A stretch of 64,000 bases of DNA. It comes from an uncultured delta proteobacterium. Its GTDB lineage: Bacteria; Desulfobacterota; Zymogenia; Zymogenales; Zymogenaceae. Positions 28,397 to 48,604 of the stretch are shown here, piece by piece. The stretch's first letter is position 1. Each line of letters begins with the position of its first letter. The stretch covers positions 64,001-128,000 of the forward strand of contig CAWBYW010000018.1 of NCBI GenBank assembly GCA_963792965.1, written 5' to 3'. A program made the position numbers and the translations under genes. Below the pieces are notes generated by a model that saw only the letters and a list, made by a program, of their open reading frames with translations, ran no database searches and was not told the origin of the DNA.

Positions 28397-28463
28397 CCGG
28401 GACCGCGGACACCGGACCGGCCCATCTCTTTCGGGATGAGTGCCCAAACGGGGTTATGAGCAG

Positions 28464-29987: not shown

Positions 29988-30098
29988 CTCGGACGCCATG
30001 GAATCCCGGCCTCAGGTCCCGCCGGCTTATTGACCTTTCATCGTTTTTCGTATAGAATCGCGGACGTAGGCTCTCAGAGCCGACCCGAGGAATCGACC

Positions 30099-32280: not shown

Positions 32281-32453
32281 GAAACGAAGGGGAAGAGCGA
32301 CAGCGCCGTGCCGGAAACACTATTCGGCATGGGGCGGTCGGGTGTTGCGCGCCGCGGCCGTGAGCCGTGATACAAACGTTTCACTATTGAACATTTCGTC
32401 TCTCCAGCCCGCCCCACCCAACCATCAAGAAGTAAAAGATTAAACTGTAGTTA

Positions 32454-32466
32454 TATCAATAAGTTA
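32454..32466 (+). promoter_or_regulatory. IHF-binding consensus site
   Basis: TATCAA-TAAG-TTA matches WATCAAnnnnTTR. Confidence 0.55.
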
Positions 32467-32597
32467 CATATCATCGCTTCTTTACGTCCTTTTCACGCCC
32501 CCCGAAGGGCAAAAATTCTCTCCATATTTCCTTACTTATGTTGCAAAAAGGATACTTATCCATCGTATCTCCCCGCCCTGAGTTTGGCTGGTATTCA

Positions 32598-32610
32598 TAA
32601 CTAACTGATA
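32598..32610 (-). promoter_or_regulatory. IHF-binding consensus site
   Basis: TATCAG-TTAG-TTA on minus strand, ~30 bp upstream of the -24 element. Confidence 0.5.
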
Positions 32611-32638
32611 TTACTTAGTAATTTGGGAACATGCCTTA

Positions 32639-32656
32639 TTGGCCTGATACTTGCTT
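32639..32656 (+). promoter_or_regulatory. Sigma54 (-24/-12) promoter
   Basis: TTGGCCTGATACTTGCTT: GG-N10-GC spacing with TTGC. Confidence 0.75.
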
Positions 32657-32882
32657 ATTGTATTGATAGGTGGACGGGACGCAATAGAGACAGGCACGCA
32701 TCGGCTCGGCCACGGTATTAAGAGGAATCGACGCTGAGAAGATGGAGATAAGTTAGCTAAAAAAGATTGTAAATATACATAAAATGGTATAGATTTATAC
32801 GCCATTAGTGGAGCAATTGCAACGCCCCACACCTGGTGTATGATGAATATGTTTAAGACACTATTCGTTGAAAGGTACACCG

Positions 32883-33710
32883 ATGTATGAGAAATATTGG
32901 GGATTGGTCGAACCCCCCTTCGAAAATGTCCCCGATCCGTCATTCCTGTATGAGTCTCCTCAGCATAAAGAGGCGCTGTCCCGGATGCTCTACGGCATAT
33001 CCCGCAGAAAGGGGTGCATCATGCTCTCCGGAGAGGTCGGCAGCGGCAAAACAACGCTTGCCCGCACCCTGATCCAGAGCCTTCCGAAGGACAAGTACGA
33101 GGTGGCCATTATCGAGAATCCACGGCTCACCTCTTCCCTCTTCATCCATGAGATCATCTACCAATTCGTCGGTCAGTCGGAGAGCAAGAACAAGGTCGAT
33201 CTCCTCCACTCGCTCAACCGGGCCCTCTTCAAGAACCTCGCCGAGGAAAAAGACTCGATCATCATAATCGACGAGGCCCAGCTTATCCAGGATAAATCGA
33301 CATTCGAGGAATTGAGGCTCCTCCTCAACTTCCAGTTGAACAACCGCTTCCTCCTCACGCTGATCCTCATGGGGCAGCCGGAGCTGAGAGACGTCGTCAA
33401 CTCGACGCCTCAGTTCGAGCAGCGGGTCGCTATCAGATACCATCTGACGCACCTCACGTTTGAGGAAACCGTCAAATATATCGGTTTTCGACTGAAGCGG
33501 GCGGGTCTGTCAAAGAACGTCTTCACTACCGAGGCCATGGAGAAGATCTACGCCTATTCCGGGGGGATTCCCCGAAAGATCAATAATATATGCGACATGA
33601 GCCTTCTGATCGGGTGGAGCCAAAAAGCCACGTACGTTGACTCGAAGATCATCACCAACCTCATAGACGAGAGCAAAAATGGTAAGGATATCAGACATTA
33701 TCAAGGATGA
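32883..33710 (+). CDS. ExeA/GspA-family AAA ATPase (ATPase domain only)
   Basis: MYEKYWGLVEPPF..PDP.FLY, GEVGSGKTT, IIDEAQ, GQPEL, SGGIPRKIN. Confidence 0.92.
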   Translation: MYEKYWGLVEPPFENVPDPSFLYESPQHKEALSRMLYGISRRKGCIMLSGEVGSGKTTLARTLIQSLPKDKYEVAIIENPRLTSSLFIHEIIYQFVGQSESKNKVDLLHSLNRALFKNLAEEKDSIIIIDEAQLIQDKSTFEELRLLLNFQLNNRFLLTLILMGQPELRDVVNSTPQFEQRVAIRYHLTHLTFEETVKYIGFRLKRAGLSKNVFTTEAMEKIYAYSGGIPRKINNICDMSLLIGWSQKATYVDSKIITNLIDESKNGKDIRHYQG

Positions 33711-34740
33711 GGACCTGTTCGGGAAGTCGGACGTAAAGAATAAGAAGAGCGACAAGATCATCATCAGTGAAACCCTGACCGCCGACGATATCATCGGAGG
33801 TCGAATATCCGACGGACTGAGGTCCCCCACCACGATGGAGGAGGAAGAGGCGAAAATATTCCTGGGGAAGATCTACGCCGCCCTCGAGAAGGCGTATGCC
33901 GTCGTGAAAGAGGGGAAAATCTTCGGGGTCCAGCCATTTGAGACGCTCGCGGAAAAATTCGTCGATTCCATCGGAAAATACGACAATATCTTCATGTTGG
34001 CGGCTTATAAAGACTACGAAGAGACCGATCACGTCAACAACTGCCTCTGGACGGCTCTCATCGCAGTCAAGATAGGGAGACGCCTCGGGCTCGGGAAAAA
34101 GGAGCTCATCGAGCTTGCCCTCTGCGGCTTTTTCCACGATATCGGCCAGGAGCGCCTCAACAACGGTGTTCTCGTCAAGCATGGGGAGCTGACCGGCCCA
34201 GAGCGCGAGGAGGTTCGGAGGCATCCCGAATACGGCAGGGATATCCTGTTTTCCCTCGGGGAACCGCACCGCTATATCTCGGATACGGCTCTTCAGGAAC
34301 ACGAGCGGCTGGACGGATCCGGATATCCGTCGGGGCTGACCGGCGGGGAGATTTCTCTCTACGCCAAGATCATCGGTCTTGCCGACACCTACGAGGCGAT
34401 GACCCACTCGCGGCCTTACCATACGCGCAAGCTCCCGCTCTTCGTCATCAAGGAGATCGTCGAGAAGATGAGGGAGCAGTTCGATACGAAAGTGATCAAG
34501 GCCTTCCTCGAGGAGATCACGATGTTTCCGGTCGGGAGTTTCGTCCGGCTCAACAACCGGGAGGTGGGGAGGGTCATCGCCGCCATGAAGGGGGCGCACT
34601 TCCGCCACGTGGTGCAGATCCTCTTCGGGCCGGACGGTGAGCGGCTCATTAAACCCAAGGCGATTAACCTCATGGAGGCCCATCTCCTCTACATTACGGA
34701 GCCCGTTGACGAACGAAATCTAAGAAGAGACACGATATGA
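33679..34740 (+). CDS. HD-GYP domain protein
   Basis: FFHDIG, HPEYG, EHERLDGSGYPSGL, ADTYEAMT..RPY. Confidence 0.88.
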   Translation: MVRISDIIKDEDLFGKSDVKNKKSDKIIISETLTADDIIGGRISDGLRSPTTMEEEEAKIFLGKIYAALEKAYAVVKEGKIFGVQPFETLAEKFVDSIGKYDNIFMLAAYKDYEETDHVNNCLWTALIAVKIGRRLGLGKKELIELALCGFFHDIGQERLNNGVLVKHGELTGPEREEVRRHPEYGRDILFSLGEPHRYISDTALQEHERLDGSGYPSGLTGGEISLYAKIIGLADTYEAMTHSRPYHTRKLPLFVIKEIVEKMREQFDTKVIKAFLEEITMFPVGSFVRLNNREVGRVIAAMKGAHFRHVVQILFGPDGERLIKPKAINLMEAHLLYITEPVDERNLRRDTI

Positions 34741-35418
34741 AGACACGACATCTCATCATCTTATGCCCTTACGGCGCTCATGGCGGCGTCATGCGCCGGG
34801 ACCGGCGGCATCCACGCCAATACGGTTCCGTCCAAGCCCGAGGACGCCGTCCGTTACCAGCACCGGATCATACCCGGTGACAGCATCCACATTACCCTGT
34901 GGGAGGTGGATCAGCCCAAGGAGATCAACGCCCAGGTCAAGAACGACGGCACGATCGATATCATGTTCATAAAGGGTCTCAAGGTCATGGGGCTCACCGA
35001 AGAGGAGCTCAATACGTTCCTGACCAAGGAGCTCTCTTTCTACTACGTGAACCCACAGTTCACGGCGTCGCTCAATGCGTACGTTTATCTGCTGGGAGAA
35101 GTCAAAACCCCGGGCGCCTACACCTTTGAAAAGGGCCAGAGCCTTGTGGCGGTCCTGGCCGTCGCCGGCGGACCGACCAAAGACGCGAAGCTCAGAAACA
35201 CCCTCATCATCCGGGGTGACTATCACAACAATCCGACGGTCATCGTCGCCGACACGTCACGGCTGCTAAAGTCGGGGGACCTCTCCGAAAATGTCATCCT
35301 CCAGGCGGGCGACATAATCTATGTGCCGTCCAAGGTAATAGCGGACGTAAACTACTACATCACGCAGATCACCCCCCTCCTGGATTTATTCCTGCTGGGC
35401 GCGGTGTTCGGTATGTGA
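34737..35418 (+). CDS. wza: Polysaccharide export lipoprotein, Wza/SLBB (apparent frameshift in signal peptide at ~34767)
   Basis: ATGA-coupled MKTRHLIILC joins LTALMAASCAG lipobox after removing one C; IIPGD, DGTI, LGEVKTPG, LQAGDIIYVP. Confidence 0.82.
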
Positions 35419-35529
35419 ATGAGGAGTGTTCTCGCGTATCGGCTGTCTCGAACTCGGAAAGTAGTGCCTATCGGGCTCGAGAGCGGTATAGAGGCGAAAG
35501 ATTTATTCACTTAAAACGGTAACTCACCC

Positions 35530-37800
35530 ATGCCCCAATATGAGATTCAGCTGAAAGACCTCATCCGGATCCTCAAGAAACGGAGAAAGATCGTCCTTTT
35601 CTCGATGGTCACCCTCGCGGTCCTGAGCGTCATCTTTGCCAAGATCCAGTCCCCCACACAGTTGTACCAGTCCATTTCAAAGGTACGGTACGACCAGACG
35701 CGGTCCCTGGCGGGGATAACCACGCCGATCTACTACTTCTCTCCCTACGACAACATCAATTCTCAGACGAAGATCATCACAAGCTACCCTGTCCTGGAGA
35801 TGACCGCCAAGAAGCTCGGCTATTTGAACAAGAATCTGAGATCTCAGGATATCCTCAGTTCCAAGGAGCATATGTCCGTCGTCTCGGGCCTTGAAGGCCA
35901 GATCGGCACGGAGATCGAGGAAAACACGAATATCATCGACATCAAGGTCACCTCGGTCGATCCCAAGATGGCCGCCGATATCGCCAACGCGGTGGCCGAA
36001 AGCTACCGTGACTACAACCGCGACCAGATTAACAAGCGGACGATAGATACGAAGGACTTCATCGAAAAGCAGTTGAGCCTCGTCAGCCAGCGGCTTAAGG
36101 AAGCCGAGGAGAATCTGAAGAATTTCCAGCAGAATCGAAATATCGTGGTGCTCGACACCCAGACCAATAACGACCTTCAGTCGCTGGCGCTCCTCCAGAC
36201 CGACTACGATAAGCTGGACCGGGAAAACAGCAACCTGCTGGCATTCAAGAACAAGGTTACGTCAAAGAATGTGAGCGGCAAGGAGCTCTTCCCCATCCTT
36301 GAGATGGACGTCAACAGCAACCTCTACACCCTGAATGCCGAGCTGCAAAAGCTCCTCTTGGAGCGCGACGAGCTCATGACGGTATACACCATCAATCACC
36401 CCAAGGTCGCCGACCTGAATGATAAGATCAACAATATCCTCGCCCTGATCGGCTCGGATATCAACACGCGGGTCTCTTCCAACAGGGTACGCATGGGGAC
36501 TCTCAACCACGATATCGACAAGTATAAGGGACGGGCCGCCGAATATCCCGATGATAACCTTACGCTGGCCAAATATCAACGGGAGGTGAAGCTACAGAGT
36601 GACCTCTACGCCGAGCTTGCCTCGAAGTACCAGGAGATCCTCATCCAGGAGTCCGGAATGGTTGAGGAGGTGGGTATCGTGGCGCCCGCTCTCGTTTCTG
36701 AATTGCCCATCAATCCGCCGAAGATATTCTCCTCGTTCCTCATCGGCCTTCTCCTGGGCCTCTTCCTCGGCGTCTTCTTTGCAATCATTATGGAGAACCT
36801 CGACACCTCCATCGGCGCCATCGAAGACGTGGAGAGCTACCTCGGCATCCCCGTCCTCGGGGTGATCCCCTACATCGAGCCATACGTTGAGGAACAAAAG
36901 GGCGAAGAAAGGATCGAAAGGCCGACCGGAGATAAGCGCAAGGAGTCTCTCCTCGTCATCTCGATGAGCCCCACGTCGCTCGCGACGGAGGCCTACCGCT
37001 CTCTCAGGACGAATATTATCTTCCTGAACCAGGAAAAAGGGATCAAGACCTTCATGATCACCAGCTCCTCGCTCCAGGAGGGGAAGACCATCACGTGCAT
37101 TAACACCGCCATCACGCTGGCCCTCGGCGGATACAGGACCCTTCTGGTGGAAGCGGACCTGCGCCGTGCCACAATTGCAAAGACCCTCGGAATCGAGCGT
37201 TCGCCCGGCCTCTCGGAGGTGATCCTCGGGATTGACTCGGCAAAAGAGGTGACACGGGATATTAACGACATCATCCTCGGCGGGCTCGAAATGGACACCC
37301 TTATGAAGTCGCCCGAGCTTGCCAACCTCTTCGTCATCACCTCCGGCGCCTTCCCGACAAACCCCGCAGAGCTGCTGAGCTCAAAGCAGATGATGAAGTT
37401 CATCGAGGAGGCCAAGGCCGAGTACGACTTCATCATCTTTGATAGCACACCGGTGTTGCCTGTTACGGACGCCGTGTTACTGTCTCAGAAAGTCGATGGC
37501 GTGATTATCCTCTACGAGGTGGGGAAGATCGCCCGCGGGGTGCTCAAGAGGACCAAGTCCCACCTCGACAACGTGAAGGCCAACGTGCTGGGGGTCATAC
37601 TCAACAACGTAAGGCCGGAGTATGGGCCCGACTATTACAGCTACCATTACCAGTATTATTACGAGGAGGGCAAGCATCCCCGGAAGCTCGGCGAATGGGA
37701 AAAGATCAAGGAATATTTCTCGAAGGATAGCCTGAGGCGGTTTGCCTCAGACACCCGAGAGAAACTCTCGAAGACTTTTCAAAAAAAGGAAATGCGGTAG
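35530..37800 (+). CDS. wzc: Polysaccharide co-polymerase / BY tyrosine kinase
   Basis: Two TM segments flanking a coiled coil; EAYRSLRTN, Walker A SSLQEGKT, ADLRR, DSTPV; Tyr cluster YYSYHYQYYY. Confidence 0.93.
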   Translation: MPQYEIQLKDLIRILKKRRKIVLFSMVTLAVLSVIFAKIQSPTQLYQSISKVRYDQTRSLAGITTPIYYFSPYDNINSQTKIITSYPVLEMTAKKLGYLNKNLRSQDILSSKEHMSVVSGLEGQIGTEIEENTNIIDIKVTSVDPKMAADIANAVAESYRDYNRDQINKRTIDTKDFIEKQLSLVSQRLKEAEENLKNFQQNRNIVVLDTQTNNDLQSLALLQTDYDKLDRENSNLLAFKNKVTSKNVSGKELFPILEMDVNSNLYTLNAELQKLLLERDELMTVYTINHPKVADLNDKINNILALIGSDINTRVSSNRVRMGTLNHDIDKYKGRAAEYPDDNLTLAKYQREVKLQSDLYAELASKYQEILIQESGMVEEVGIVAPALVSELPINPPKIFSSFLIGLLLGLFLGVFFAIIMENLDTSIGAIEDVESYLGIPVLGVIPYIEPYVEEQKGEERIERPTGDKRKESLLVISMSPTSLATEAYRSLRTNIIFLNQEKGIKTFMITSSSLQEGKTITCINTAITLALGGYRTLLVEADLRRATIAKTLGIERSPGLSEVILGIDSAKEVTRDINDIILGGLEMDTLMKSPELANLFVITSGAFPTNPAELLSSKQMMKFIEEAKAEYDFIIFDSTPVLPVTDAVLLSQKVDGVIILYEVGKIARGVLKRTKSHLDNVKANVLGVILNNVRPEYGPDYYSYHYQYYYEEGKHPRKLGEWEKIKEYFSKDSLRRFASDTREKLSKTFQKKEMR

Positions 37801-37820
37801 CCCGCAGGAAGGCCGTCATC

Positions 37821-39224
37821 GTGGGAACAGCTCGACATACATCGGAAGGGAATCTGACCAATTTCTCCACCTCCATCGCCCTCGGCATCATGGTCATCAT
37901 GATCTCCGTCCTGGCCTTCTTGATTTCCGGCGGGATGCAGCTCAAGATGGTGGTCATGGTGGTCGGCATCATCGCCACCGCCATCTGTTTTTTCAACACC
38001 GAGATGGCCCTCTACCTCATCCTCTTTGCCATGCTCTTTTCGCCGGAGTTTTCCTTTGGCGGAGAACTGGCGGAGGGTAGGAAGCTCGTCCTTAGGGTCG
38101 AGGATATTATCATCGTCGTCACCTTCTTTTCGTGGGTGGTCAAGACCGTCCTCTACGAAGGTGTGGGTCTGATCGTCAAGACCCCCCTGAACCGGCCCAT
38201 TAAGCTCTACGTCTTCGTCTCCTTTCTCTCCACCTTCCTGGGGGCGCTTATCGGCAAGGTGAACCTCTCCTCCGGGCTCCTCTACGTCTTTAAGTATATG
38301 GAGTTTTTCCTGGTCTACTTTATGTTCGCCAACAACATTACGGACCGGGACCAGGTCAAGCGGTTTATCATTGCGGCCTTTATCGTGGCGATCTTCACGG
38401 CGCTCTACGCCGTCGCCCAGATCCCCTTCGGGGGCAGGGTCACCGCTCCCTTTGAGGGCGAAAGCGGCGAGCCCAACACGCTCGGAGGGTATCTCATCCT
38501 GATTATCTCGATAGCCGCCGGACTCTGGTTTGTCATGCGGGATCAGCGGCTGAAAATTGCGCTGGCCTCGCTCGTGGTCCTTATGACTGTTCCGTTCCTC
38601 TTTACCCTCTCGCGTAGCTCGTACGTCGCCGCCATCCCGATGTTTGCGGCCTTTTTCATCTTCACCAACAAGAAACTGCTGCTCTCCTTTGTCCTGCTCG
38701 CCTTTGTGCTGGCGGCGCCCATCCTTCTTCCCGAAAAGATCAAGGAGCGGGTCTCGGAAACCTTCGTGCCCGACCCCGGTTTTGCCCAGACCCAGACCAT
38801 CGGAAACGTCGGGTTTGACACCTCCACGTCGGAACGGATCTCATCGTTTAAGTATTCCATTGAGAAGTGGCAAAAGCGGCCCATCTTCGGATGGGGCGTT
38901 ACCGGCGTCGGCATCATCGACAGTACCTATTTCCGCCTCCTGGCCGAGGTAGGCCTCGTGGGACTGGCCGCCTTTCTATATCTGATCTCCGTCATCGGCC
39001 TGCACCTCTACCATATCTTCAAGAAGTCGCAGGATCCGCTCTTGAAAGGGCTTGCCCTCGGGATGCTCGCCGGGACCGCGGCGCTCCTCGGGCATAGCGT
39101 GGGCGCGGCATCCTTCATCATCGTCAGAATCATGGAGCCCTATTGGTTCTTCATGGCCTGTATCGTTGCCCTCTACCAGATCGAACAGAGTTATCCGCCC
39201 GCTCCACAAAAGGAACTCGCGTGA
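37821..39224 (+). CDS. O-antigen ligase / Wzy polymerase family protein
   Basis: Polytopic; EPNTLGGYL, TLSRSS, RPIFGWG, RLLAEVGLVG. Confidence 0.85.
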   Translation: MGTARHTSEGNLTNFSTSIALGIMVIMISVLAFLISGGMQLKMVVMVVGIIATAICFFNTEMALYLILFAMLFSPEFSFGGELAEGRKLVLRVEDIIIVVTFFSWVVKTVLYEGVGLIVKTPLNRPIKLYVFVSFLSTFLGALIGKVNLSSGLLYVFKYMEFFLVYFMFANNITDRDQVKRFIIAAFIVAIFTALYAVAQIPFGGRVTAPFEGESGEPNTLGGYLILIISIAAGLWFVMRDQRLKIALASLVVLMTVPFLFTLSRSSYVAAIPMFAAFFIFTNKKLLLSFVLLAFVLAAPILLPEKIKERVSETFVPDPGFAQTQTIGNVGFDTSTSERISSFKYSIEKWQKRPIFGWGVTGVGIIDSTYFRLLAEVGLVGLAAFLYLISVIGLHLYHIFKKSQDPLLKGLALGMLAGTAALLGHSVGAASFIIVRIMEPYWFFMACIVALYQIEQSYPPAPQKELA

Positions 39225-40399
39225 GATTTGGCTATTTTCTCAAGATGCTCCCCTCCCGTATGTCGACTTTCATTCACCGGGAGATCGCCTGGCTCCGGTC
39301 GCAGGGGCACGAGGTATACCTCTTCCCCGTCTGGGACATCGACCCAAACGACCTCCCCGAGACTATAACGGGGTCCCCCGACTATATCATCGCTCGTACT
39401 TCGCTCGTATCGTTGGGCTGGGTGCCTGCCCTCGCTCGCTTCTCCCTTACCTCTCCGCTCAGGGTCGCGCGGATAGTCGCCGGCTACCGCCGTCTCTACG
39501 GGATCGCGTTTGTCCTCAAATCGATCGAGGCCGCCCGACTGATTCAAAGAAAGAGGATCGAGCGTATCTGCGCCCACACCCTTTCACTGGCCGCTTCGCG
39601 GGCACGCATCTGTTGGCTCCTGACGGAGATTCCCTACAGCATTACCGTCCACGGCTCGGATCTCCTCCTCTTCCCCCCCCGGGACGGCCCGGAATTAATC
39701 CGGGATGCACACGTCGTCATCACCCCCACGGAATTTAACAAGAAGCGGCTTCAGGAGATAGCCGGCCCGTCCGCGAAAGAAAATATCAGGGTAATCCCCT
39801 ACCCGGTGGATACCGACTTCTTCCGGCCCGAAACAACGAAGCTCGCGCGTATGGGAGAGATGCGACTGATCACGGTGGGGAGGCTCCATCCGGTGAAGGG
39901 ACACCGGTATATCCTCCGGGCCGTCGATACGTTGCGGCGGGAGGGAGTCGCCCTTTCCCTGAAAATCGTGGGCGAGGGGGAGGAAAGGACCGGGCTCGAG
40001 GCCGAAGTGAAAAAGCTGGGCCTCGAGAGCTACGTAGTATTCACCGGCGCCCTCTTCGGCGCCGAGCTGCGGGACCAGTTGGCCGCGTCGGACATCTTTG
40101 TCCTGGCCAGTCACTCCGAGGGCCTCCCGGTATCGATGCTGGAGGCAATGGCGACGGGCCTCTGCGTAGTGGTTCCCGCCGTGACCGGGATCCCGGAAAT
40201 GGTGCGCGACGGACAAAACGGCCTCCTCTTTACCCCCCAGGACCCCGTCGATCTGGCCGAGAAGCTGCGCCATGCCGCTGGCGACGCGGGCCTCAGGCGT
40301 CGGCTCGGGAAAGAGGCGCGCACCTCCGTCGTCTCGCGGTGCAGCGGCGATGCGGTCTACCGAGAGATCCTGCGTGCCGTCGGGGGGGTCAAGGAATGA
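39221..40399 (+). CDS. GT4 glycosyltransferase
   Basis: TFIHREI, TVHGSD, VGRLHPVKG, EGLPVSMLEAMATG. Confidence 0.9.
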   Translation: MRFGYFLKMLPSRMSTFIHREIAWLRSQGHEVYLFPVWDIDPNDLPETITGSPDYIIARTSLVSLGWVPALARFSLTSPLRVARIVAGYRRLYGIAFVLKSIEAARLIQRKRIERICAHTLSLAASRARICWLLTEIPYSITVHGSDLLLFPPRDGPELIRDAHVVITPTEFNKKRLQEIAGPSAKENIRVIPYPVDTDFFRPETTKLARMGEMRLITVGRLHPVKGHRYILRAVDTLRREGVALSLKIVGEGEERTGLEAEVKKLGLESYVVFTGALFGAELRDQLAASDIFVLASHSEGLPVSMLEAMATGLCVVVPAVTGIPEMVRDGQNGLLFTPQDPVDLAEKLRHAAGDAGLRRRLGKEARTSVVSRCSGDAVYREILRAVGGVKE

Positions 40400-41550
40400 C
40401 GGTCGCGGATCTCACATTCGCCTCTAACGCGCGCACGATCACGAGCCATGCCGTTCGGGACACGTGGGCCTCGATGATGGGCCAGCCCCCCCACCCGCTC
40501 GATATTCCGAGCGGTCCGCTCCCCGCCGACCTTATCCCCTTTTCGGCGGCAAAGGGCTCCCTCGGGCCCGTGATGCAGGCACTTTCCCGCTGGGGGCTCG
40601 CGGGGCGCTTGGAAGAAAGGGAGCGAACGAGGGCCGAGGTCGCGCTCGTCCGCGCGGGGATGTCGGTGGCCGCGATGCGGTCGGAGCTCGCCCGGATACT
40701 CGGGGCGTGCGCCGCGGAGCAGGTCGATGTGGTTATCCTGAAGGGCCACGATCTCCTCGTCAGGTACTACGAGAGCGATACCATCCGCCCCGTCACCGAC
40801 GCCGACCTCCTCATCAGGCGACGTGACTACCCGAAGCTCGGTAGGATACTCACCGACGCCGGCTATCGCACCCCGGGGGGAGAGAGGACGAGCGTCTGGT
40901 CGCGGGGTGGTTTCATCATCGATGTTCATTTCGCCTTCGTCAACGACGTGAGGAACCCGATGAGCGCATTCCTGCCGCAGATCCCGGCCGGGGAGATCTT
41001 CGCTCGCGCCGAGAAAAGGGAGATCGAAGGCGCCGCATACCTCTCACCCGACCCCGGCCACAGCCTCATCATCACCGCGCTCCATGCGATGACCCACTCC
41101 TACCTGAAGGACTACTGGTTCTTGGACGCCGGGACGCTCCTGATCAGGAACGCCGAGCCGTCGTTTGTGGATCGGTGTCGGGCACTCGCGGAAGAACATC
41201 GGCTGACCGGTGTGCTGGGCCCCATGCTCTGGGCCCTCCGGGAGCACTTCGCCTTCAGGCCGGACTCGGGCAGGGGCAAGGAATATCGCGTCTCGCTCCC
41301 CGTCCGGCGTCTCATCGGTGCGGCGATGCGAAGCACCGACTACCTCTTCTTCGGCGATCTCCTGCTCGGATTGTCTGTTGACAGCTACAAAAAAAAGTTC
41401 TATTATTTTAAGGAGATGGCCTTCCCCCACCGGGACGTCGTCGCGCGGGAGAGGGGTGTCGGCATCACAGGGGCGGCCCCCTTATTTCTTTCCCGATCCC
41501 TGCACCTGGTGAGGTCAGGATTTCACATCCTCATCAAAGGACGGCGATAA
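40396..41550 (+). CDS. Nucleotidyltransferase family protein (NTP_transf_5-like)
   Basis: VVILKG..L..YY....RPVTDADLLI, IDVH, LHAMTH..WFLD. Confidence 0.8.
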   Translation: MTVADLTFASNARTITSHAVRDTWASMMGQPPHPLDIPSGPLPADLIPFSAAKGSLGPVMQALSRWGLAGRLEERERTRAEVALVRAGMSVAAMRSELARILGACAAEQVDVVILKGHDLLVRYYESDTIRPVTDADLLIRRRDYPKLGRILTDAGYRTPGGERTSVWSRGGFIIDVHFAFVNDVRNPMSAFLPQIPAGEIFARAEKREIEGAAYLSPDPGHSLIITALHAMTHSYLKDYWFLDAGTLLIRNAEPSFVDRCRALAEEHRLTGVLGPMLWALREHFAFRPDSGRGKEYRVSLPVRRLIGAAMRSTDYLFFGDLLLGLSVDSYKKKFYYFKEMAFPHRDVVARERGVGITGAAPLFLSRSLHLVRSGFHILIKGRR

Positions 41551-42167
41551 TGGCCGTATTCCTTCGCGCGGCGTCCCGATTTCACACGATCATACGGAAT
41601 TTCGTAAGGCTCTACCTCCTCTTTAACGAGAAAGAAGTGTGTTCCGTCCGGGATTCGATTGTCCGCTGCGAATGTGAAGGTGACGAGATGGTACTGTTTG
41701 GCCTCGATGACCGTAGGGCGCATCTCCTCAACCATACCGCCGCCCGAGTTCTCGGGCTTACCGACGGGAGGAGGTCCGTCGGAGATATCGCCGCGCGTAT
41801 CGCCTCCGATTTCGGGGAGAAAAAGGGGGTCGTCGGGCGCGACGTGAAAAGGATCTGTCGGGACCTTTATCTCAAAGGGGTGATCACTATGGCGCACGAA
41901 CGTTCGTATGTACCGAAGATAAAAAAAGAGACCGTCGTCCGCGAAGAGGACGACGGAGCATGTATCTTTGACCCGCTGACCGATGAGCTTTCGGCGATCA
42001 ACGAGACAGGTAGAATCGTCCTGAAACAGATGAACGGGAAAAACAGTATCGCACAGATCGCGAAGAAGGTCAGGGCTGTCTTCCCCGACCAGGAAGAGGA
42101 GAAGATATACCGGGACGTTGAGGCGTTCATAGATGAGCTGAAGAATCGGGGCTTTCTTACCGTATGA
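41550..42167 (+). CDS. Tandem PqqD/RRE peptide-binding protein (second domain ScmD-like)
   Basis: Two units: EGDEMVLF..LNHTAARVLGLTDGRRSVGDI..L.LKGVI and REEDDGACIFDP..INETGRIVLKQMNGKNSI..L.NRGFL. Confidence 0.88.
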   Translation: MAVFLRAASRFHTIIRNFVRLYLLFNEKEVCSVRDSIVRCECEGDEMVLFGLDDRRAHLLNHTAARVLGLTDGRRSVGDIAARIASDFGEKKGVVGRDVKRICRDLYLKGVITMAHERSYVPKIKKETVVREEDDGACIFDPLTDELSAINETGRIVLKQMNGKNSIAQIAKKVRAVFPDQEEEKIYRDVEAFIDELKNRGFLTV

Positions 42168-42232
42168 TCCGCCTGTCGAGGCCCCAGATAATCAGCTTCT
42201 CTTCAAGACGTACGATATAAGGGGAACTCATC

Positions 42233-43528
42233 GTGGTAAACAGATCAGTCCTAAAGAAAGAAAAGGGAAACACTCCCATCCCCACAAGCATGCTGCGCGC
42301 ACCGCTGTCCCTCTTTATCTCGATCACCTCGCGCTGCAACCTCTCGTGCCGCCATTGCGCCGTCTATTCGGACGACCTTACGTATGACCCGGATCTCACC
42401 ACCTCACAATGGCTCTCCTTCATCGACCAGATCGTCCGTCTCAGGGTCTTCCGCGTCAAGATCAGCGGCGGAGAGCCGTTCGCGCGAAAGGACATCTTCG
42501 ATATCCTCGATCACCTTTTCACGCAGCCGATCCGTGTCTCGATTAATACCAACGCCATGCTTATCGATGAGGATGCCGCCCGGCATCTCTCGTCGTACGG
42601 GCCAAAGCTCTCCGACCTCATGGTGAGCATTGACGGGGGCTCCCCCGAAACCCACGACGCCCTTCGGGGGCGAGGGGCATTTCGGGAGATGCTGAAGGGG
42701 GCTGGGCATCTGGTCGAACACGTGAGAAAACTCACCGCCTATTGCACGGTGACCCGCCTCAATTTCAGGGAGCTCGGGGACGTGGCGCGTCTGGCCTCGG
42801 AAATCGGGATAAGTGGTCTAAAATTTAACGACCTTATCCCCCTGGGGCGTGGGCTTAAATACCGGGATGATCTTGATCTCACGCGGGAGGAGAAACGAGA
42901 AACCACTACACGCCTCAAGGCGCTGCAAAAGACGTATCCCTTCATATCGGGGACCCTCTTTGAGGTAGACGAGATATTCGAGAAGATCGGGTCGACAGCT
43001 CCCGAAAAGCTGGCGGAGTCGTCGGAAATGGAACACTGCCTTTCGGGATGCGGCGCGCTCAACAACGAATGCGCCATCAGGCCCGACGGATGGGCGACCC
43101 CCTGTGACCGCCTCCCGGAGCTCACGGCGGAGAATATCCTTGAGGTGCCGCTCGACGTGATCTGGAGGGAGTCGCAGACGTTTACGGAATTCCGCCGGCG
43201 TTTTACCACCCCTATCACAAGCCTCAGCACGTGCTCGGATTGTCAGTTTGCCCCGGTTTGCACAGGAGGATGCGCCGCGTCGGCCTTTGCGGCGTACGGC
43301 ACGACGCTTGCGCGCGACCCCTCGTGCTGTTACAGGCTCTACGAGGAGGAGACGGCTGATGCGCCGCATAAATCGACGCGAATATCCTCTCCGTCGCGCG
43401 TACCTCTATGTTTCCGGCGGGTGCAACCTCCGCTGCGCCCATTGCTGGATATCTCCGGCCTTCGTGGCCGAGGGCCGTGTACAACGAGATCAGCTGACGG
43501 CCGCCGACGTAAAGAAGGTCATCGATGA
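42233..43528 (+). CDS. Radical SAM/SPASM peptide maturase, ScmE-like (true stop probably ~43359)
   Basis: CNLSCRHC, SGGEPF, SIDG; SPASM CGA..ECAIRPDG..TPC...CSDC.FAPVCTGGC. Confidence 0.9.
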   Translation: MVNRSVLKKEKGNTPIPTSMLRAPLSLFISITSRCNLSCRHCAVYSDDLTYDPDLTTSQWLSFIDQIVRLRVFRVKISGGEPFARKDIFDILDHLFTQPIRVSINTNAMLIDEDAARHLSSYGPKLSDLMVSIDGGSPETHDALRGRGAFREMLKGAGHLVEHVRKLTAYCTVTRLNFRELGDVARLASEIGISGLKFNDLIPLGRGLKYRDDLDLTREEKRETTTRLKALQKTYPFISGTLFEVDEIFEKIGSTAPEKLAESSEMEHCLSGCGALNNECAIRPDGWATPCDRLPELTAENILEVPLDVIWRESQTFTEFRRRFTTPITSLSTCSDCQFAPVCTGGCAASAFAAYGTTLARDPSCCYRLYEEETADAPHKSTRISSPSRVPLCFRRVQPPLRPLLDISGLRGRGPCTTRSADGRRRKEGHR

Positions 43529-44447
43529 GGGCCGTCCGATAGGCCTTCTCAGCGTCAAGCTCACCGGGGGGGAACCGTTTATCAATGACGAGATATTCGA
43601 GATAATTGAGCTGATCGGCGGCCGGGAGATCTCGATGTTTATCGAAACCAACGGGACCCTGATCGACCGGGATACCGCGGCCTTCTTGAAAAGACAGGGG
43701 ATAAACTCCGTCAGCGTGAGCGTCGACAGCAATCGCTCCTCCTTTCATGATGCCTTCCGCGGGGTGGCGGGGGCGCTGGACGGTGCCGCCTCGGGCGTAG
43801 AGCACCTCGTATCCGAGGGTATATCGGTGCAGGTCATCATGAGCCTGGTCAGGGAAAACTCCCGTGACATCGAAGGTCTTATTGATTTGGCAAAGCGGCT
43901 CGGAGCGCATTCGGTGAAGATCAACCCGGTGACCCCGATCGGAAGGGGCGGAGTCCTGTCCGACCGAGGCGACACGCTGGGGGTCGAGGAACTCCTCGAA
44001 CTCTCACCGTGGGTGGAGGGGCAGCTCTCGCGTCAGTACGGGATCGAGACCTTCTTCACCGTTCCGTCCGTCTTTAAGCCGATCGGCCACCTGTTTGACG
44101 AAAGGAACGCCCAGTGCCATATCCTGACGATCATCGGCATCCTTGCAAACGGCGATGTTTCGATTTGCGGCATTGGGAGGGAAGTGCCCGCCCTCGTGAT
44201 GGGAAATATCCGTACGGATAACCTGGAACAGATCTGGCGGGAAAGCTCCATCCTCGGTGATCTCAGACAGATCGTGCCGAATAACTTGGAGGGAATCTGC
44301 GGTCGGTGCATCATGAAGGGGATATGCATGGGGTCGTGCCGGGCGGACGCCTATGTCCTTTCGGGGAGCCTTGCGGCGCCTCACTGGATCTGCCGGGAGG
44401 CGCTCGATAAAGGACTCTTCCCGAAAAATAGACTGTTAAGCCAATGA
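43359..44447 (+). CDS. Radical SAM/SPASM peptide maturase, ScmF-like
   Basis: YPLRRAYLYVSGGCNLRCAHCWI.P, SVKLTGGEP, ETNG; CHILTIIGILANGDVSICGIG...CGRC.MKGIC.GSCRA. Confidence 0.92.
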   Translation: MRRINRREYPLRRAYLYVSGGCNLRCAHCWISPAFVAEGRVQRDQLTAADVKKVIDEGRPIGLLSVKLTGGEPFINDEIFEIIELIGGREISMFIETNGTLIDRDTAAFLKRQGINSVSVSVDSNRSSFHDAFRGVAGALDGAASGVEHLVSEGISVQVIMSLVRENSRDIEGLIDLAKRLGAHSVKINPVTPIGRGGVLSDRGDTLGVEELLELSPWVEGQLSRQYGIETFFTVPSVFKPIGHLFDERNAQCHILTIIGILANGDVSICGIGREVPALVMGNIRTDNLEQIWRESSILGDLRQIVPNNLEGICGRCIMKGICMGSCRADAYVLSGSLAAPHWICREALDKGLFPKNRLLSQ

Positions 44448-45400
44448 TTGCGAGGATCGGAGGCATATCGATCAAGCTTTCCGTCCCTGGGGACCGGGCG
44501 TCGTCCGAAAGGATTCTGGAAGAGGTCAACGGCAGACTATCCGGCTTCACCGCTAAAAGGGGACGGCATAACCTCATGCTTACGATCAGGCCGGTGGACG
44601 ATCTCCCCTGGGAGGAGATACTTTGCAAAGAAGACCTCATACGGGCGCGCCGAATCGTGGATGTCCTGAGAAGGAGGTTCCCTCTTACGAGGATACCGTT
44701 TGAGAATATGCATACGAGCAATCCATCGCACATAAAGGGAAGAATTTCCTCCGACCTCCTCTCCCGCTTCTGCAGGGGAGGTGTTTCGGTCATCCCGCAG
44801 GGCGGTTTCCTCCTGGCCGTTGACCACCGAAGCGGATACGGAGAGGTCTTCGTTAAGCGGCGCGAAGAGGGAGGCCTCGTCCCCTCGTTCATGAGCGCCC
44901 TGCAGGGCGCCCTCGGTCTGTGCGCCTCGTACCATGACGCCCTCATGCTCCACGCGAGCTCCCTTGCGATTGACGGGAGGGGATTTGTCTTTATCGGCGC
45001 ATCGGGGGCCGGCAAAACTACAATAGCCTCGTCGGTCGCCCCGGAGGCGGTGCTCTCAGACGATGGGTCCTGGTGTTCGCGGATGGGCGGTAGATTTTAC
45101 CTGTATCGAACGCCCTTTTCCCAGATAGACACTGGGCCCCCTCTCGCAGACCGGACTCCTCTTGACCGGCTCCTCTTTCTCGGGAAGAGCGAGCACAACT
45201 ATATCGCCGGCCTCTCGCCGGGCCGGGCCATGACAATGCTGCTTCTCAATCACATCCACTTCTTCCGATATATGGACCGGGAGGGAGCATTTAAGGCCTT
45301 CGGCCTTGTGGAGGAGCTATGCCGGAAGAACCGGGCCTTCACCCTCTTTTTTAATCGGAGTTTTAATCCGATGTCATTTTTCAGGGGAATAATCGAATGA
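44444..45400 (+). CDS. HPr-kinase-related P-loop protein, ScmC-like
   Basis: MLHASSL, GASGAGKTT, LSDD, TPF. Confidence 0.8.
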   Translation: MIARIGGISIKLSVPGDRASSERILEEVNGRLSGFTAKRGRHNLMLTIRPVDDLPWEEILCKEDLIRARRIVDVLRRRFPLTRIPFENMHTSNPSHIKGRISSDLLSRFCRGGVSVIPQGGFLLAVDHRSGYGEVFVKRREEGGLVPSFMSALQGALGLCASYHDALMLHASSLAIDGRGFVFIGASGAGKTTIASSVAPEAVLSDDGSWCSRMGGRFYLYRTPFSQIDTGPPLADRTPLDRLLFLGKSEHNYIAGLSPGRAMTMLLLNHIHFFRYMDREGAFKAFGLVEELCRKNRAFTLFFNRSFNPMSFFRGIIE

Positions 45401-45618
45401 AAGAAAAAAAGACGTATGAGCCGCCGATGGTCATAGATCTTCAGGTCGACTATACCCAGGCGGTGGGACAGTCACGCTGCAACGCCGGGCCCACAGCCAC
45501 CGGGCAGTGCACCACCGGGCCGCAGGCGAACCGCACATGTGGCACGGGCACCCAATTTACGCCGTTCTGCGGAAACGGCCAAACCGCCAACGGCTGCAAC
45601 ACCGGTAAGACTCCGTAG
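45397..45618 (+). CDS. Putative RiPP precursor peptide (73 aa)
   Basis: ATGA-coupled to kinase gene; KKTYEPPMV..L leader motif; five CxxG at residues 28,38,48,58,67; Thr/Gly-rich core. Confidence 0.85.
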   Translation: MKEKKTYEPPMVIDLQVDYTQAVGQSRCNAGPTATGQCTTGPQANRTCGTGTQFTPFCGNGQTANGCNTGKTP

Positions 45619-45656
45619 CGGCAGCTGTTCCGACCGACTTCAAAGGAGCAGGAGCG

Positions 45657-46100
45657 GTGAGGCAGTTTAGACGAATCCGATTCCGTGGATACAGCATGTA
45701 CCCGGCGCTGCGCCCGGGCGACACGCTGATCCTTCGCCCAGTGTTGAGCGGCGAGTGTGCCAGGGGTGATATCGTCTGCGTCCCCGGCGAACGCAATTTC
45801 ACCACCCACCGCGTCGTCGAGATCAATCGGAGCTCGGCCGGTCCCATGCTCATCACCAAGGGAGACAACCTCCCCTACTTCGATTCGCCCATCGTCCTCC
45901 CCTCGGAAGGGATTCATCGGGTCGCCATGATCTGCCGCCCGGGACGGGGACCCACCAGACCCCGTTTCGGGAGGACACGTGCCCTCCTCTCCCGAAATAA
46001 CCTGACGGTAGGTATCATACAGGGGAGGATCGGGCGCCTCATAAGGGGCACGTATGGACGTGTTCGGAATTTACTTAATAGGAAACCCAACCGCACATGA
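45657..46100 (+). CDS. S24/S26 signal-peptidase-like serine peptidase lacking an N-terminal TM anchor
   Basis: AAAGGAG/AGGAG SD; GYSMYPALRPGD, RGDIV, THRVV, LITKGDN. Confidence 0.85.
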   Translation: MRQFRRIRFRGYSMYPALRPGDTLILRPVLSGECARGDIVCVPGERNFTTHRVVEINRSSAGPMLITKGDNLPYFDSPIVLPSEGIHRVAMICRPGRGPTRPRFGRTRALLSRNNLTVGIIQGRIGRLIRGTYGRVRNLLNRKPNRT

Positions 46101-47680
46101 ACCGGATCGATAAATCCCTCTTCCGCGTCTGCCAGGTGACCCTGGCAAACCTCCTGAAAACTACGGCCGCAAGGTTCAGGGATCGGGAGGCGATCTCTTG
46201 TTCTGTAACGGGCCGACGCTTCTCGTTTCGAGAGGTAAACGAGCGGATGAATCGGCTCGCCAATGCCCTCCTCTCGTTGGGGGTCAAGAAAGGAGATCAT
46301 TGCGCGTTTCTCTGCCGCAACCGGGCCGAGACGGGAGAGATCTACGGCGCCCTCATCAAAATCGGGGCGATCGCCGTACCGCTGCACTGGAGCCTTGAGA
46401 TTGAAGAGATCATCGACTACCTCACGTTTACCCAGGCCCGGCATTTCCTGTTTGAGGATTTCTATACCGAGGCCGCTATCGTGATCAAAAAGCGCCTCAG
46501 GCGCATCAAGACGTTCGTCTGCATCGGGAAACAGGAGACCGACTTTGCCCTCCCCTACGAGGAGCTGATCAGCGGATCGTCCCCCGTTCTTCCCTTCATC
46601 GACGTGAATGCCGACGACGTCCAGGGCATCGATACAACCTCCCGGACGACCGGTGTCCATAAGGTCTATCCCCTCACCCACGCAAACGGCCTGAGCGCCG
46701 TCATGTTCTTCACGTCGATCCACGAGTTGACGAAAGATGACGTCATCCTGACCCTCTTCCCCCTCTACGGGCGCGTGGGCCTTGCCTGGTATGGTGCGGG
46801 ATTTTTGACCGGGGCCCGCAACGTCCTGTTTCAACCGGACATGACCGATCCATCCGGCATTTTGCGGATCATACAGGACGAGCGCATCACCATAACCAAC
46901 TGGACCCCGATTGTCGCGTCTATCCTCCTCACGCTCCCGGATCTGGATCGATACGACCTCTCGTCCCTCAGAGCGATCTCTTTTTCGGCAAGCCGCTTTC
47001 CCGTCGACCTGCAAAAGGAGGTGAGGGATCGCATCTGCCCCGACATCTACGAATATTACGCCATGCAGGAGGCCGGCATCATTGCCCACATGGGGCCCGA
47101 GGACAAGCGGAAAAATCCCGCCTCCGTGGGAACCCTCTGCTTCGGGACCGACGTGCGCATCGTGGACGAGGCCGGGAAAGATGTGGCCACCGGCGAAATC
47201 GGCCAAATCATCTGCAGGGCCCTCTCCGCCGCACCAGGGTATTTCAGGAATGACGCGCAGACGCGATCGGCTTTCAGGGACGGCTGGTTTTACACCGACG
47301 ACTGGGGGCGGTTTGATGAAGACCAGTTCTTCTATTTCTTAGGCAGGAGGGAGGACATGATCGTGACGGGGGATACGACGGTCTTCGCGGCGGGTATCGA
47401 AGAGGTCCTTACCGCCCACGAGGGGGTCCTGGACGCCGCGGTCATCGGGCTGCCGGATGATACGCTCGGTGAGGCCGTGACGGCGGTGATAGTGAGAAAC
47501 CCGAAGGGAGACGTGACGAGAGAGGCGCTGACCGTCTGGTGTCGGGAGAGGCTTACCCCGCACCAGGTGCCCCGGCGGATCATCTTTTCCGCGATGCTCC
47601 CCCGCAACGCCGTCGGCAAGGTAACCAAGTATGTGCTGGTCGAGAGGTTCTCCCGTGAGGGCGCTCACACCGACGGATAG
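46097..47680 (+). CDS. AMP-binding acyl-CoA synthetase-like protein with degenerate motifs
   Basis: NRLANAL.SLGVKKGD, TTSRTTGVHK, YAMQE, DGWFYTDD.G, GRREDMI, LPRNAVGKV. Confidence 0.85.
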   Translation: MNRIDKSLFRVCQVTLANLLKTTAARFRDREAISCSVTGRRFSFREVNERMNRLANALLSLGVKKGDHCAFLCRNRAETGEIYGALIKIGAIAVPLHWSLEIEEIIDYLTFTQARHFLFEDFYTEAAIVIKKRLRRIKTFVCIGKQETDFALPYEELISGSSPVLPFIDVNADDVQGIDTTSRTTGVHKVYPLTHANGLSAVMFFTSIHELTKDDVILTLFPLYGRVGLAWYGAGFLTGARNVLFQPDMTDPSGILRIIQDERITITNWTPIVASILLTLPDLDRYDLSSLRAISFSASRFPVDLQKEVRDRICPDIYEYYAMQEAGIIAHMGPEDKRKNPASVGTLCFGTDVRIVDEAGKDVATGEIGQIICRALSAAPGYFRNDAQTRSAFRDGWFYTDDWGRFDEDQFFYFLGRREDMIVTGDTTVFAAGIEEVLTAHEGVLDAAVIGLPDDTLGEAVTAVIVRNPKGDVTREALTVWCRERLTPHQVPRRIIFSAMLPRNAVGKVTKYVLVERFSREGAHTDG

Positions 47681-48489: not shown

Positions 48490-48604
48490 ATCCTTATTGT
48501 ATGATTACTGAGTGACAAGTCAACAAAAAAGGTGAAAAGCGCCGGCGCGGCCGATGATCACACGTCCCTTTTCGTGCCCAACTGTACAATCGGAAGAAAT
48601 TTCG

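Follow-up and report, generated by a model that had tools for sequence, protein, structure and literature searches.

A SynChlorMet-type operon combines a cysteine-repeat precursor, two radical SAM/SPASM enzymes and a kinase-peptidase module at the end of an exopolysaccharide locus

Overall organization of the operon

The window analysed here, a 64,000-nucleotide stretch of contig CAWBYW010000018.1 from an uncultured delta proteobacterium, contains an eight-gene operon at positions 40396-47680. The operon is real and intact in the window, and is a genuine operon of uncharacterised type for a peptide made by the ribosome and modified after translation (RiPP). It resembles the SynChlorMet (Scm) cassette, which is defined bioinformatically in NCBIfam/TIGRFAM by the families ScmA (TIGR04252), ScmC (TIGR04249), ScmD (TIGR04248), ScmE (TIGR04250) and ScmF (TIGR04251). 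The eight open reading frames (ORFs) lie on the plus strand and mostly overlap (Table 1). Their limits, their junctions and their Pfam and NCBIfam matches agree with the densely packed, co-oriented genes and the identities proposed in a first-pass annotation of this DNA. That annotation mentioned neither a 170-nt overlap between both radical S-adenosylmethionine (rSAM) genes, nor the precedent of the linear polyphosphorylated peptides (LPPs) of Bacillota (Popov et al., Nat Commun 2026, PMC13381572), nor the exopolysaccharide (EPS) context, all of which are described below.

Table 1. Genes of the operon and the adjoining exopolysaccharide locus (window coordinates)
Feature	Coordinates	Strand	Evidence
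NTP_transf_5 nucleotidyltransferase-like protein, 384 aa	40396..41550	+	PF14907, 100.8 bits against a cut-off of 31.2
Tandem PqqD-type RRE protein, 205 aa, two RRE domains	41550..42167	+	PF05402, 81.6 bits over two stretches
ScmE-like radical SAM/SPASM enzyme, 431 aa	42233..43528	+	TIGR04250, 214.7 bits; Radical_SAM and SPASM
ScmF-like radical SAM/SPASM enzyme, 362 aa	43359..44447	+	TIGR04251, 358.8 bits; Radical_SAM and SPASM
HPr-kinase-like P-loop kinase, 318 aa	44444..45400	+	TIGR04352 (HprK-related kinase A), E 8e-5
Precursor peptide P0001, 73 aa	45397..45618	+	Cys-repeat core, YxxP leader; ScmA TIGR04252, E 0.0074
Soluble archaeal/ER-type S26 signal-peptidase-like leader peptidase, 147 aa	45657..46100	+	TIGR02228, 46 bits against a cut-off of 51.85
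Acyl-CoA-ligase-like adenylating enzyme, 527 aa	46097..47680	+	AMP-binding, 207 bits, and AMP-binding_C
Co-oriented exopolysaccharide locus directly upstream	25293..40399	+	Pfam and NCBIfam matches; context, outside the cassette

Reading of the junctions from the sequence revealed four ATGA overlaps: between the last glycosyltransferase gene upstream and the NTP_transf_5 gene, between the ScmF-like and kinase genes, between the kinase and peptide genes, and between the S26 and ligase genes. The NTP_transf_5 gene, which starts with the ATG at 40396 (alternatively with a GTG at 40339), is joined by a TAATG overlap to the gene for the tandem RiPP recognition element (RRE). Intergenic gaps of 65 nt and 38 nt separate the RRE gene from the ScmE-like gene and the peptide gene from the S26 gene, respectively. 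A box with the sequence AGGGGA is located 5' of the ATG of the peptide gene, and the peptide and S26 genes both have plausible ribosome-binding sites. An Rfam scan of positions 24000-49000 yielded no match.

The two rSAM genes share 170 nt (43359-43528) in two different reading frames, and the ATG of the ScmF-like gene at 43359 is preceded by a AGGAGGAG box, a strong Shine-Dalgarno sequence. The match to the ScmE model stops at residue 374 of the 431 residues of the ScmE-like protein, beyond which lies an Arg/Pro-rich tail. In four relatives of the same taxonomic family (loci L053, L055, L056 and L060), the ScmE alignment extends to the final residue, 431; therefore, the 170-nt overlap is conserved there.

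The precursor peptide and its family

The precursor starts with a leader containing Y7-x-x-P10, followed by a stretch of small residues and a core with cysteines at positions 28, 38, 48, 58 and 67. The core comprises five C-x-x-G-x-x-X units, in which all five cysteines have a glycine at +3, and the residues at +6 are Ala, Ala, Phe, Ala and Pro in order. The C-terminal end of the peptide coincides exactly with the +6 proline of the last cysteine. No tandem repeat was detected at the DNA level in the peptide gene; thus the repeats are neither a recent duplication nor an assembly artefact. Four database homologues, sharing 54-62% identity with the precursor, have the same leader and repeat pattern, and the leader as well as the Cys and Gly positions are invariant among the close homologues. 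A profile of 20 related peptides, including the window peptide itself, was searched against the 37,545 ORFs of the 3.36-Mb genome that holds the window, and recovered the window ORF alone (E 7.7e-24; next best, E 1.5).

The only NCBIfam family touched by the precursor is ScmA (model SCM_precur_ScmA), at 16.5 bits against a cut-off of 35. This model touches six of the 20 related peptides at E <= 0.01 (best E 1.2e-7), gives nothing at this threshold in five genomes carrying a canonical ScmF, and yields weak, scattered matches in five other genomes. Given this poor recovery in Scm-bearing genomes, the curated ScmA is much narrower than the peptide family. The existence of ScmA also corrects the first-pass statement that the Scm cassette has no identified precursor. 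On the other hand, the expectation that short Cys-repeat ORFs with a YxxP leader would adjoin homologous cassettes was borne out: searched with a profile of five peptides, 18 of the 33 loci that were fetched yielded such a leader-plus-repeat ORF at E <= 1e-3, and 22 did so at E <= 0.01; canonical loci are among these. In one locus, L062 (G176:C129), a single contig holds no fewer than two cassettes, together with three distinct Cys-repeat precursors.

A search with the precursor profile against 1.84 billion cluster representatives (50% identity) returned 1149 proteins at E <= 1e-3, of which 53 were at E <= 1e-10. Among the best 150 matches, 131 are no longer than 150 residues and possess three or more C-x-x-G units behind a [Y/F/W]-x-x-P leader. 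In these 131 members, glycine occupies the +3 position of 765 of 805 cysteines, Ala (434) and Pro (170) dominate the +6 position, and a Cys-to-Cys spacing of 10 (390) or 11 (177) accounts for 567 of 675 intervals, although these counts are partly circular, since the profile that picked these matches was itself derived from such motifs. Less circular are the counts from the fetched loci, where glycine follows at +3 for 60/60 and 62/62 cysteines in the two sub-cut-off groups and for 32/36 in the canonical loci. The peptide ends 6-9 residues past its last cysteine in 103 of 136 members, a count from profile matches that shares the partial circularity. Together these features give a substrate grammar in which a Y-x-x-P leader precedes Cys units roughly ten residues long, with Gly in position +3 and either Ala or Pro in position +6, and the chain stops at +6. 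The family also includes long members (P0016, P0021, P0030 and P0103), such as P0016 with 265 residues and 17 C-x-x-G units after a normal leader, and the number of repeats is therefore very elastic. The top two matches, P0006 (1062 aa) and P0007 (770 aa), are unrelated tandem-repeat proteins and were rejected as false positives. In ten 90%-identity clusters examined, all seven named entries are annotated as 'hypothetical protein'.

The radical SAM pair forms a sister group of ScmE and ScmF

Comparison against NCBIfam revealed ScmE as the top match of the first rSAM enzyme (next family, 153.7 bits) and ScmF as that of the second (next family, 167 bits), with the ScmF model covered from end to end; the cut-off of both models is 400 bits. 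The resemblance to the Scm cassette suggested by the first-pass annotation stands in these two top matches and in the presence of ScmD among the matches of the RRE protein (48.7 bits, cut-off 100), but every curated Scm model scores below its NCBI cut-off for the window proteins, and the ScmC model (cut-off 125 bits) matches no protein of the window's genome at E <= 0.01. An orthologue in G192 scores 29.6 bits against the ScmC model. As in the Scm cassette, the window has a PqqD-type RRE, two paralogous rSAM/SPASM enzymes in the order E then F, a P-loop protein of ScmC/HprK-like type and a short Cys-repeat precursor.

The ScmF model was run on 401 genomes of the phylum, taking E <= 1e-60 as a strong match. 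Strong matches were found in 37 genomes, 14 of them above the NCBI cut-off; the loci of matches above the cut-off are hereafter called canonical, and 15 of these were fetched. In the taxonomic family of the window, eight of the nine other genomes have a ScmF match of 349-374 bits. A quick tree computed for 64 proteins of the two types in the fetched loci splits E from F at 100% SH-aLRT support. The window E protein falls within a clade of its own taxonomic family at 99% and the window F protein likewise at 100%, while the canonical F proteins form a separate group at 95%. The window rSAM enzymes are thus placed by the tree as sister clades to the canonical ScmE and ScmF. From the sub-cut-off scores and the tree placement it follows that the locus is a sister variant of the curated cassette and not a member of it by NCBI criteria.

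Both enzymes keep the motifs predicted to bind three Fe-S clusters. The ScmE-like protein has a CX3CX2C motif at residue 35 and a SPASM CX2CX5CX3C motif at residue 334, and the ScmF-like protein has the corresponding motifs at residues 22 and 314, each with flanking cysteines. These motifs are kept in 30/30 and 28/30 of the E proteins and in 34/34 and 34/34 of the F proteins. With a radical-SAM motif that begins at residue 22 or 35, there is no fused RRE in either enzyme.

The canonical Scm loci also encode C-x-x-G repeat peptides with a Y-x-x-P leader, and most of those fetched have S26 and NTP_transf_5 genes. Iterated profiles built from the window proteins detected an HprK-like protein in 9/15, an S26 peptidase in 10/15, an NTP_transf_5 protein in 8/15 and a single PqqD protein in 14/15 of the canonical loci; several of these loci are cut by contig ends, and the E-values are inflated because matches were folded back into the profiles, each at an inclusion E < 1e-5. 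Therefore, the kinase-like, S26 and nucleotidyltransferase genes are not extras of the window locus, contrary to the first-pass reading of the peptidase and of extra tailoring enzymes. Compared to the canonical loci, the window differs in having an extra N-type RRE domain, an S26 peptidase without the C-terminal extension of about 70 residues found there, a kinase-like protein with only 16-20% identity to the canonical ScmC, and an appended acyl-CoA ligase, which occurs in none of the 15 canonical loci. No paper was found in the literature on the SynChlorMet cassette or its five TIGR models, and the text of PMC10288494 contains none of the terms 'Scm', 'HPr', 'Desulfo', 'Syntrophobacter' and 'Geobacter'.

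The tandem RRE, the kinase and the other processing enzymes

The tandem RRE protein consists of an N-terminal domain (residues 31-111) and a C-terminal domain (residues 123-202). Profile search against the PDB matched the C-terminal domain to the lasso-peptide RRE TfuB1 (6jx3, E 2.8e-4) and to PqqD (3g2b), and the N-terminal domain to the lasso RRE TbiB1 (5v1u, E 7.3e-3). The single ScmD of the canonical loci resembles the C-type domain in 14/14 cases, and N-type domains are confined to the sister clade. In the loci L064 and L069, an N-type RRE is encoded beside the E gene and a C-type RRE beside the F gene, an adjacency that suggests one RRE domain for each rSAM enzyme.

The only library match of the kinase-like protein is the weak P-loop match to HprK-related kinase A. 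Its profile best matches HPr kinase/phosphorylase in the PDB (2qmh and 1jb1, E 4e-7), with the alignment covering the histidine, the P-loop and the pair of aspartates. In an alignment of 16 sequences, including the canonical ScmC, the residues H170, G180, G190, K191, D206, D207 and P224 are invariant. The window kinase is a distant homologue of ScmC, and we read ScmC, an Scm protein of obscure role, as a putative HPr-kinase-like kinase. The DD pair corresponds to the metal site that was mutated in PsmK, as described in the available part of PMC6993621.

The NTP_transf_5 protein has orthologues of 39-55% identity at the same position in 8/8 loci of the window's taxonomic family, and contains a D-x-D motif. 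We take PsmN, the partner of PsmK, to be a member of the same Pfam family (PF14907).

The S26 peptidase most closely resembles SEC11C and SEC11A in the PDB (E 1e-15). Among 15 aligned sequences, H51, R52, D70 and D76 are invariant and S13 is nearly so, the sole exception being an ORF called from a later start. With just 12 residues before the catalytic serine, the protein has no N-terminal membrane anchor. The spacings of S13-H51 (38 residues) and H51-D76 (25 residues) compare with 39 and 25 residues between the catalytic residues S29, H68 and D93 of the LPP peptidase LppS (PMC13381572, available part). Two loci have single ORFs matched by two profiles: one in L062 (8196-9743) is matched by both the S26 and the NTP_transf_5 profiles, and one in L079 (6837-8423) by both the kinase-like and the S26 profiles. 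These ORFs are possible gene fusions linking the enzymes.

The acyl-CoA ligase has NF004837 as its best NCBIfam match (331.9 bits, cut-off 476) and also matches the exosortase A-associated ligase family TIGR03098 (189 bits, cut-off 592). It directly follows the S26 gene in 5/8 loci of the same taxonomic family and in the three metagenome loci that reach far enough; it is an accessory member of the cassette. Its nucleotide-binding loop reads T-S-R-T-T-G in the window and in the two closest orthologues (L056 and L060), and T-S-G-T-T-G in L053, L054 and L057. The usual motif of adenylate-forming enzymes has a glycine where the window ligase has this arginine, which may indicate an unusual substrate or an altered activity.

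Conservation of the gene order

Within the limits of their contigs, 8/8 loci fetched from the window's taxonomic family repeat its gene order. A metagenome scan starting from the leader alone led to five confirmed loci, all with the same order: the peptide gene lies just 3' of the kinase gene in all five, the S26 gene follows in the four with sufficient contig, and the ligase gene in the three that extend further. The arrangement of the cassette is not due to chance.

The exopolysaccharide locus upstream

The cassette stands at the end of an XrtA/PEP-CTERM-like EPS locus, of which the genes run in the same direction. This locus encodes a GNAT protein, a methyltransferase, a MOP flippase, a response regulator, a sigma-54 activator, a PEP-CTERM-type ATPase, an HD protein, a polysaccharide exporter, a Wzz/tyrosine kinase, a Wzy_C ligase-like protein and a GT4 glycosyltransferase. 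The best NCBIfam matches of the locus are families associated with XrtA/PEP-CTERM systems, namely TIGR03015 (ATPase; 245.6 bits, cut-off 324.5), TIGR03027, TIGR03018, TIGR03007 and TIGR03097, all below their cut-offs. The roles matched are those of the ATPase, the exporter, the chain-length determinant/tyrosine kinase and a putative O-glycosylation ligase; no exosortase was identified among the ORFs of the EPS region scanned. The same EPS neighbours lie by the cassette in five relatives (L055, L056, L058, L059 and L060), according to tblastn searches with the window proteins in a survey that covered the non-canonical loci. In L064 and L069, homologues of the HD protein and of the PEP-CTERM-type ATPase are encoded inside the cassette. 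Since the operon ends the EPS locus, its product probably acts in the cell envelope or the biofilm matrix.

Comparison with LPP and other peptide systems

The closest experimental precedent of the operon, by analogy, is the LPP system. The likeness was judged from the descriptions in the available part of PMC13381572, on which the following statements about LPPs are based, and not from the Lpp protein sequences. LPP clusters lie within loci for capsular polysaccharide, and their induction goes together with that of an EPS gene; LppK polyphosphorylates Ser3 of the core, and removal of the leader by LppS requires LppB. The leader consensus is YxxPxVLxHQxIxFETxxS, and the motif that it has in common with the window leader is Y-x-x-P-x-[V/I/L]. 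The window has four of the five LPP components, as its kinase, S26 peptidase, RRE and nucleotidyltransferase match the LPP module: both systems have a stand-alone RRE, an HprK-like kinase and a nucleotidyltransferase in one cluster, a signal peptidase I of archaeal type with a putative Ser/His/Asp triad, and a location in polysaccharide loci. In the leader, Y-x-x-P-x-V-I and a glutamine at the tenth position match, and the remainder is similar only with a shift of one or two residues.

The two systems also differ. LPP cores are linear, with no Cys repeats, and the terms radical SAM, SPASM and thioether are nowhere mentioned in the LPP text (PMC13381572), whereas the window adds two rSAM enzymes and a Cys-repeat core, features that speak against a purely linear product. 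An MsbA-like exporter belongs to the LPP clusters, but none is present among the flanking ORFs scanned in the window. In addition, the LPPs are called restricted to Bacillota by their authors, in contrast to the window, which belongs to a Deltaproteobacteria-type lineage with relatives labelled Candidatus Zymogenaceae or delta proteobacterium. Thus the module of SpI peptidase, RRE, kinase and nucleotidyltransferase is not confined to Bacillota. The operon is a new variant of an HMM-defined cassette with a processing module common to LPP; new here is the joining of the LPP-like module to two rSAM enzymes, and the locus thereby links a cassette that is defined by HMMs only with a RiPP family of which the first biochemistry dates from 2026.

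A second likeness is to the tailoring pair of lasso peptides of the paeninodin and pseudomycoidin type (PsmK/PadeK and PsmN), in which a DD-site kinase likewise stands beside an uncharacterised nucleotidyltransferase, together with a Y/W-x-x-P leader to which a B1-type RRE binds. PsmK and PsmN carry out phosphorylation and then hexose addition (PMC6993621, available part). The RRE domains of the window have their best matches in the lasso RREs described above; however, the window has no lasso cyclase and no B2 protease, and its peptide ends in proline, whereas the phosphorylation site of the lasso peptides is the C-terminal serine.

The maturases of sacti- and ranthipeptides (SkfB, CteB, PapB, TrnC/TrnD and CrpC) resemble the window enzymes in being three-cluster SPASM rSAM enzymes that act on a Cys-bearing core after a leader. 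Against PapB the window enzymes score 68.8 and 63 bits (cut-off 340), and against StsB 104 and 93 bits (cut-off 625). The RRE of the window is discrete, and not fused as in the maturases compared. To our knowledge, C-x-x-G-x-x-[A/P] is not among the known acceptor motifs, such as C-x3-D, N-x-x-C and C-x-x-Q/D.

Proposed pathway and alternative readings

The best explanation of the locus is a SynChlorMet-type RiPP operon, from a sister clade of the curated Scm families, in which two modules act on one precursor. As an overall pathway we consider it likely that a leader-guided system modifies the Cys repeats by rSAM chemistry and processes the peptide by an LPP-like kinase and peptidase. This pathway is built on what the sequence provides, that is, the gene set, the intact catalytic motifs, the grammar of leader and repeats, the synteny and the EPS context. 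The tandem RRE would bind the Y-x-x-P leader and present the peptide to the enzymes, and one RRE domain may serve each rSAM enzyme. The ScmE-like and ScmF-like SPASM enzymes, perhaps as a pair, for which the TrnC/TrnD complex is a precedent, would install one modification in each Cys unit. Similar to LppK, PadeK and PsmK, the HprK-like kinase would phosphorylate a serine or threonine, and the NTP_transf_5 enzyme would then elaborate the phosphate in the manner of PsmN. The soluble peptidase of SEC11/SipW type would remove the leader with the help of the RRE, after the example of LppS, and the acyl-CoA-ligase-like enzyme, in the sub-clade of the window, would add or activate an acyl group. By analogy with these systems, the product is most likely cross-linked and probably phosphorylated. 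The 'multiply cross-linked' peptide of the first-pass annotation is plausible, and its claim that the product is uncharacterised agrees with the literature searched, in which no published product was found; the supplements of the LPP paper (SpI homologues, other clusters of the sequence similarity network, co-occurring domains) were outside this search and may list rSAM-linked or non-Bacillota clusters.

Several observations weigh against this pathway. In addition to the sub-cut-off Scm scores, the missing ScmC match and the circularity of the database counts, the source is a metagenome-assembled genome of 88.85% completeness and 3.98% contamination. Two of the closest relatives have a peptide gene that looks damaged: in L058 (= L009; 10257-10460) there is a frameshift at a run of eight G right after the first cysteine, and in L059 (= L010; ~10143-10265) there is an in-frame TAA in the leader, with the neighbouring kinase gene split over three frames. 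This could be sequencing error or decay; in the assembly with the split kinase gene, assembly error is a possible cause. No ABC-transporter domain or exporter was found among 40 flanking ORFs scanned with Pfam (10026-57444, some of them without any match), nor among the eight operon proteins. For the phosphorylation module, no conserved phospho-acceptor is apparent, as a Ser/Thr two residues before the first cysteine occurs in only 37/136 members, and LppN is described as having no detectable activity in the published system (PMC13381572, available part). The solved structures nearest to the ScmE-like enzyme, SkfB, PqqE, SuiB and CteB, are a mixture of C-C cross-linkers (SuiB and PqqE) and thioether formers (SkfB and CteB). 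Finally, a conserved cleavage and phosphorylation site of the form [aromatic]-x-Q↓A...S (the arrow marks the cleavage), modelled on FET↓AQS of the LPPs, was tried and rejected for the family, since it holds in the window sub-family but in only 17/136 members. For the window sub-family itself this site is kept as a low-confidence suggestion, by analogy with LPP.

The biological role allows a reading that is compatible with the proposed pathway, in which the peptide is not a free natural product but a component of the EPS system, phospho-glycosylated and cross-linked, which primes, anchors or decorates the polymer, or acts as a signal in EPS regulation. We regard this reading as possible, though on the unlikely side. 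It would account for a cassette that terminates a co-oriented EPS locus, for the EPS neighbours and the HD and ATPase homologues in the relatives named above, and for the absence of a dedicated exporter among the flanking ORFs scanned; the setting of the LPP clusters in capsular polysaccharide loci and the TIGR03098 match of the ligase point in the same direction. Nevertheless, all the PEP-CTERM models score below their cut-offs, the evidence on neighbours is from tblastn with the window proteins in the loci surveyed, and co-location is no proof of a shared function.

For the rSAM step, a thioether from the cysteine sulfur to a carbon within each C...(+6) heptad is the leading candidate, to which we give about an even chance. 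Less favoured, and unlikely in our judgement, is the same pathway with a different radical reaction at each repeat, for example C-C or C-O cross-linking, epimerization or conversion of the Cys side chain, or with one rSAM enzyme serving merely as a scaffold. The closest solved relatives, which include SuiB, PqqE and anSME, are in keeping with it. SuiB, the streptide maturase, and PqqE form C-C cross-links, and anSME oxidizes Cys or Ser to formylglycine. The next NCBIfam matches of the ScmE-like enzyme after ScmE are the mycofactocin maturase and AhbD. There is also precedent for a scaffold-like partner, as TrnC and TrnD act as a complex in which only the radical chemistry of TrnC is essential in thuricin CD (PMC12093266, available part), and for repeats modified singly and without cross-links in poly-cyclopropylglycine (PMC9062424, available part). 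Against other chemistries, a cysteine defines every repeat and the units end at +6, which fits a Cys-anchored ring, and all the cluster motifs are kept in both enzymes. Moreover, the known SPASM enzymes on Cys-repeat substrates make thioethers; CrpC, for example, installs ranthionine links in a protein whose Cys motifs are repeated (PMC13692751, available part). A lanthionine route combining the kinase with the cysteines was considered and rejected: a lyase or cyclase is lacking, and only the window-related group often has Ser/Thr at +7 (27/52), which is not the leading residue there in the other two groups.

Taking the thioether and the EPS context together, the locus might represent a large hybrid RiPP class, in which an LPP-type module is combined with an rSAM/SPASM pair that closes one small ring for every C-x-x-G-x-x-[A/P] decapeptide, and in which the product is wired to EPS assembly of XrtA/PEP-CTERM type, for example as a polymer-attached or priming molecule and not as a diffusible antibiotic. 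This composite proposal is speculative, and we think it rather improbable as a whole. If one ring per repeat were indeed made by the rSAM pair, the family would offer a new scaffold in which small thioether rings follow one another in series, and would give a handle on why polysaccharide loci so often encode modified peptides.

That the locus is a decaying or silent remnant, or that the small ORF is no gene and the rSAM enzymes belong to cofactor or sugar metabolism, is very improbable: the broken peptide genes of the two relatives and the AhbD and NirJ-type families among the rSAM matches could be read this way, but all eight window genes are intact with their catalytic residues kept, the peptide is conserved in its homologues at the identity and with the invariant positions given above, and the only place in the window's genome where it occurs is beside the cassette.

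Further neighbouring genes

Farther upstream, beyond the EPS locus adjoining the cassette, there are additional glycosyltransferases and a third radical SAM/SPASM gene. The latter (14767-15918, minus strand) lies in the glycan part of the locus, and adjoins glycosyltransferases and a gene for a DegT-type aminotransferase fusion of 689 residues (15915-17984). Downstream of the operon (47731-57444), a metallo-beta-lactamase-fold gene on the opposite strand is followed by a sugar-use block, which encodes a ROK regulator/kinase, a ketohexokinase, a class II aldolase, a fucose-isomerase-like protein and a GH5 glycosidase. The metallo-beta-lactamase-fold gene is also a neighbour of the cassette in L058 and L060.

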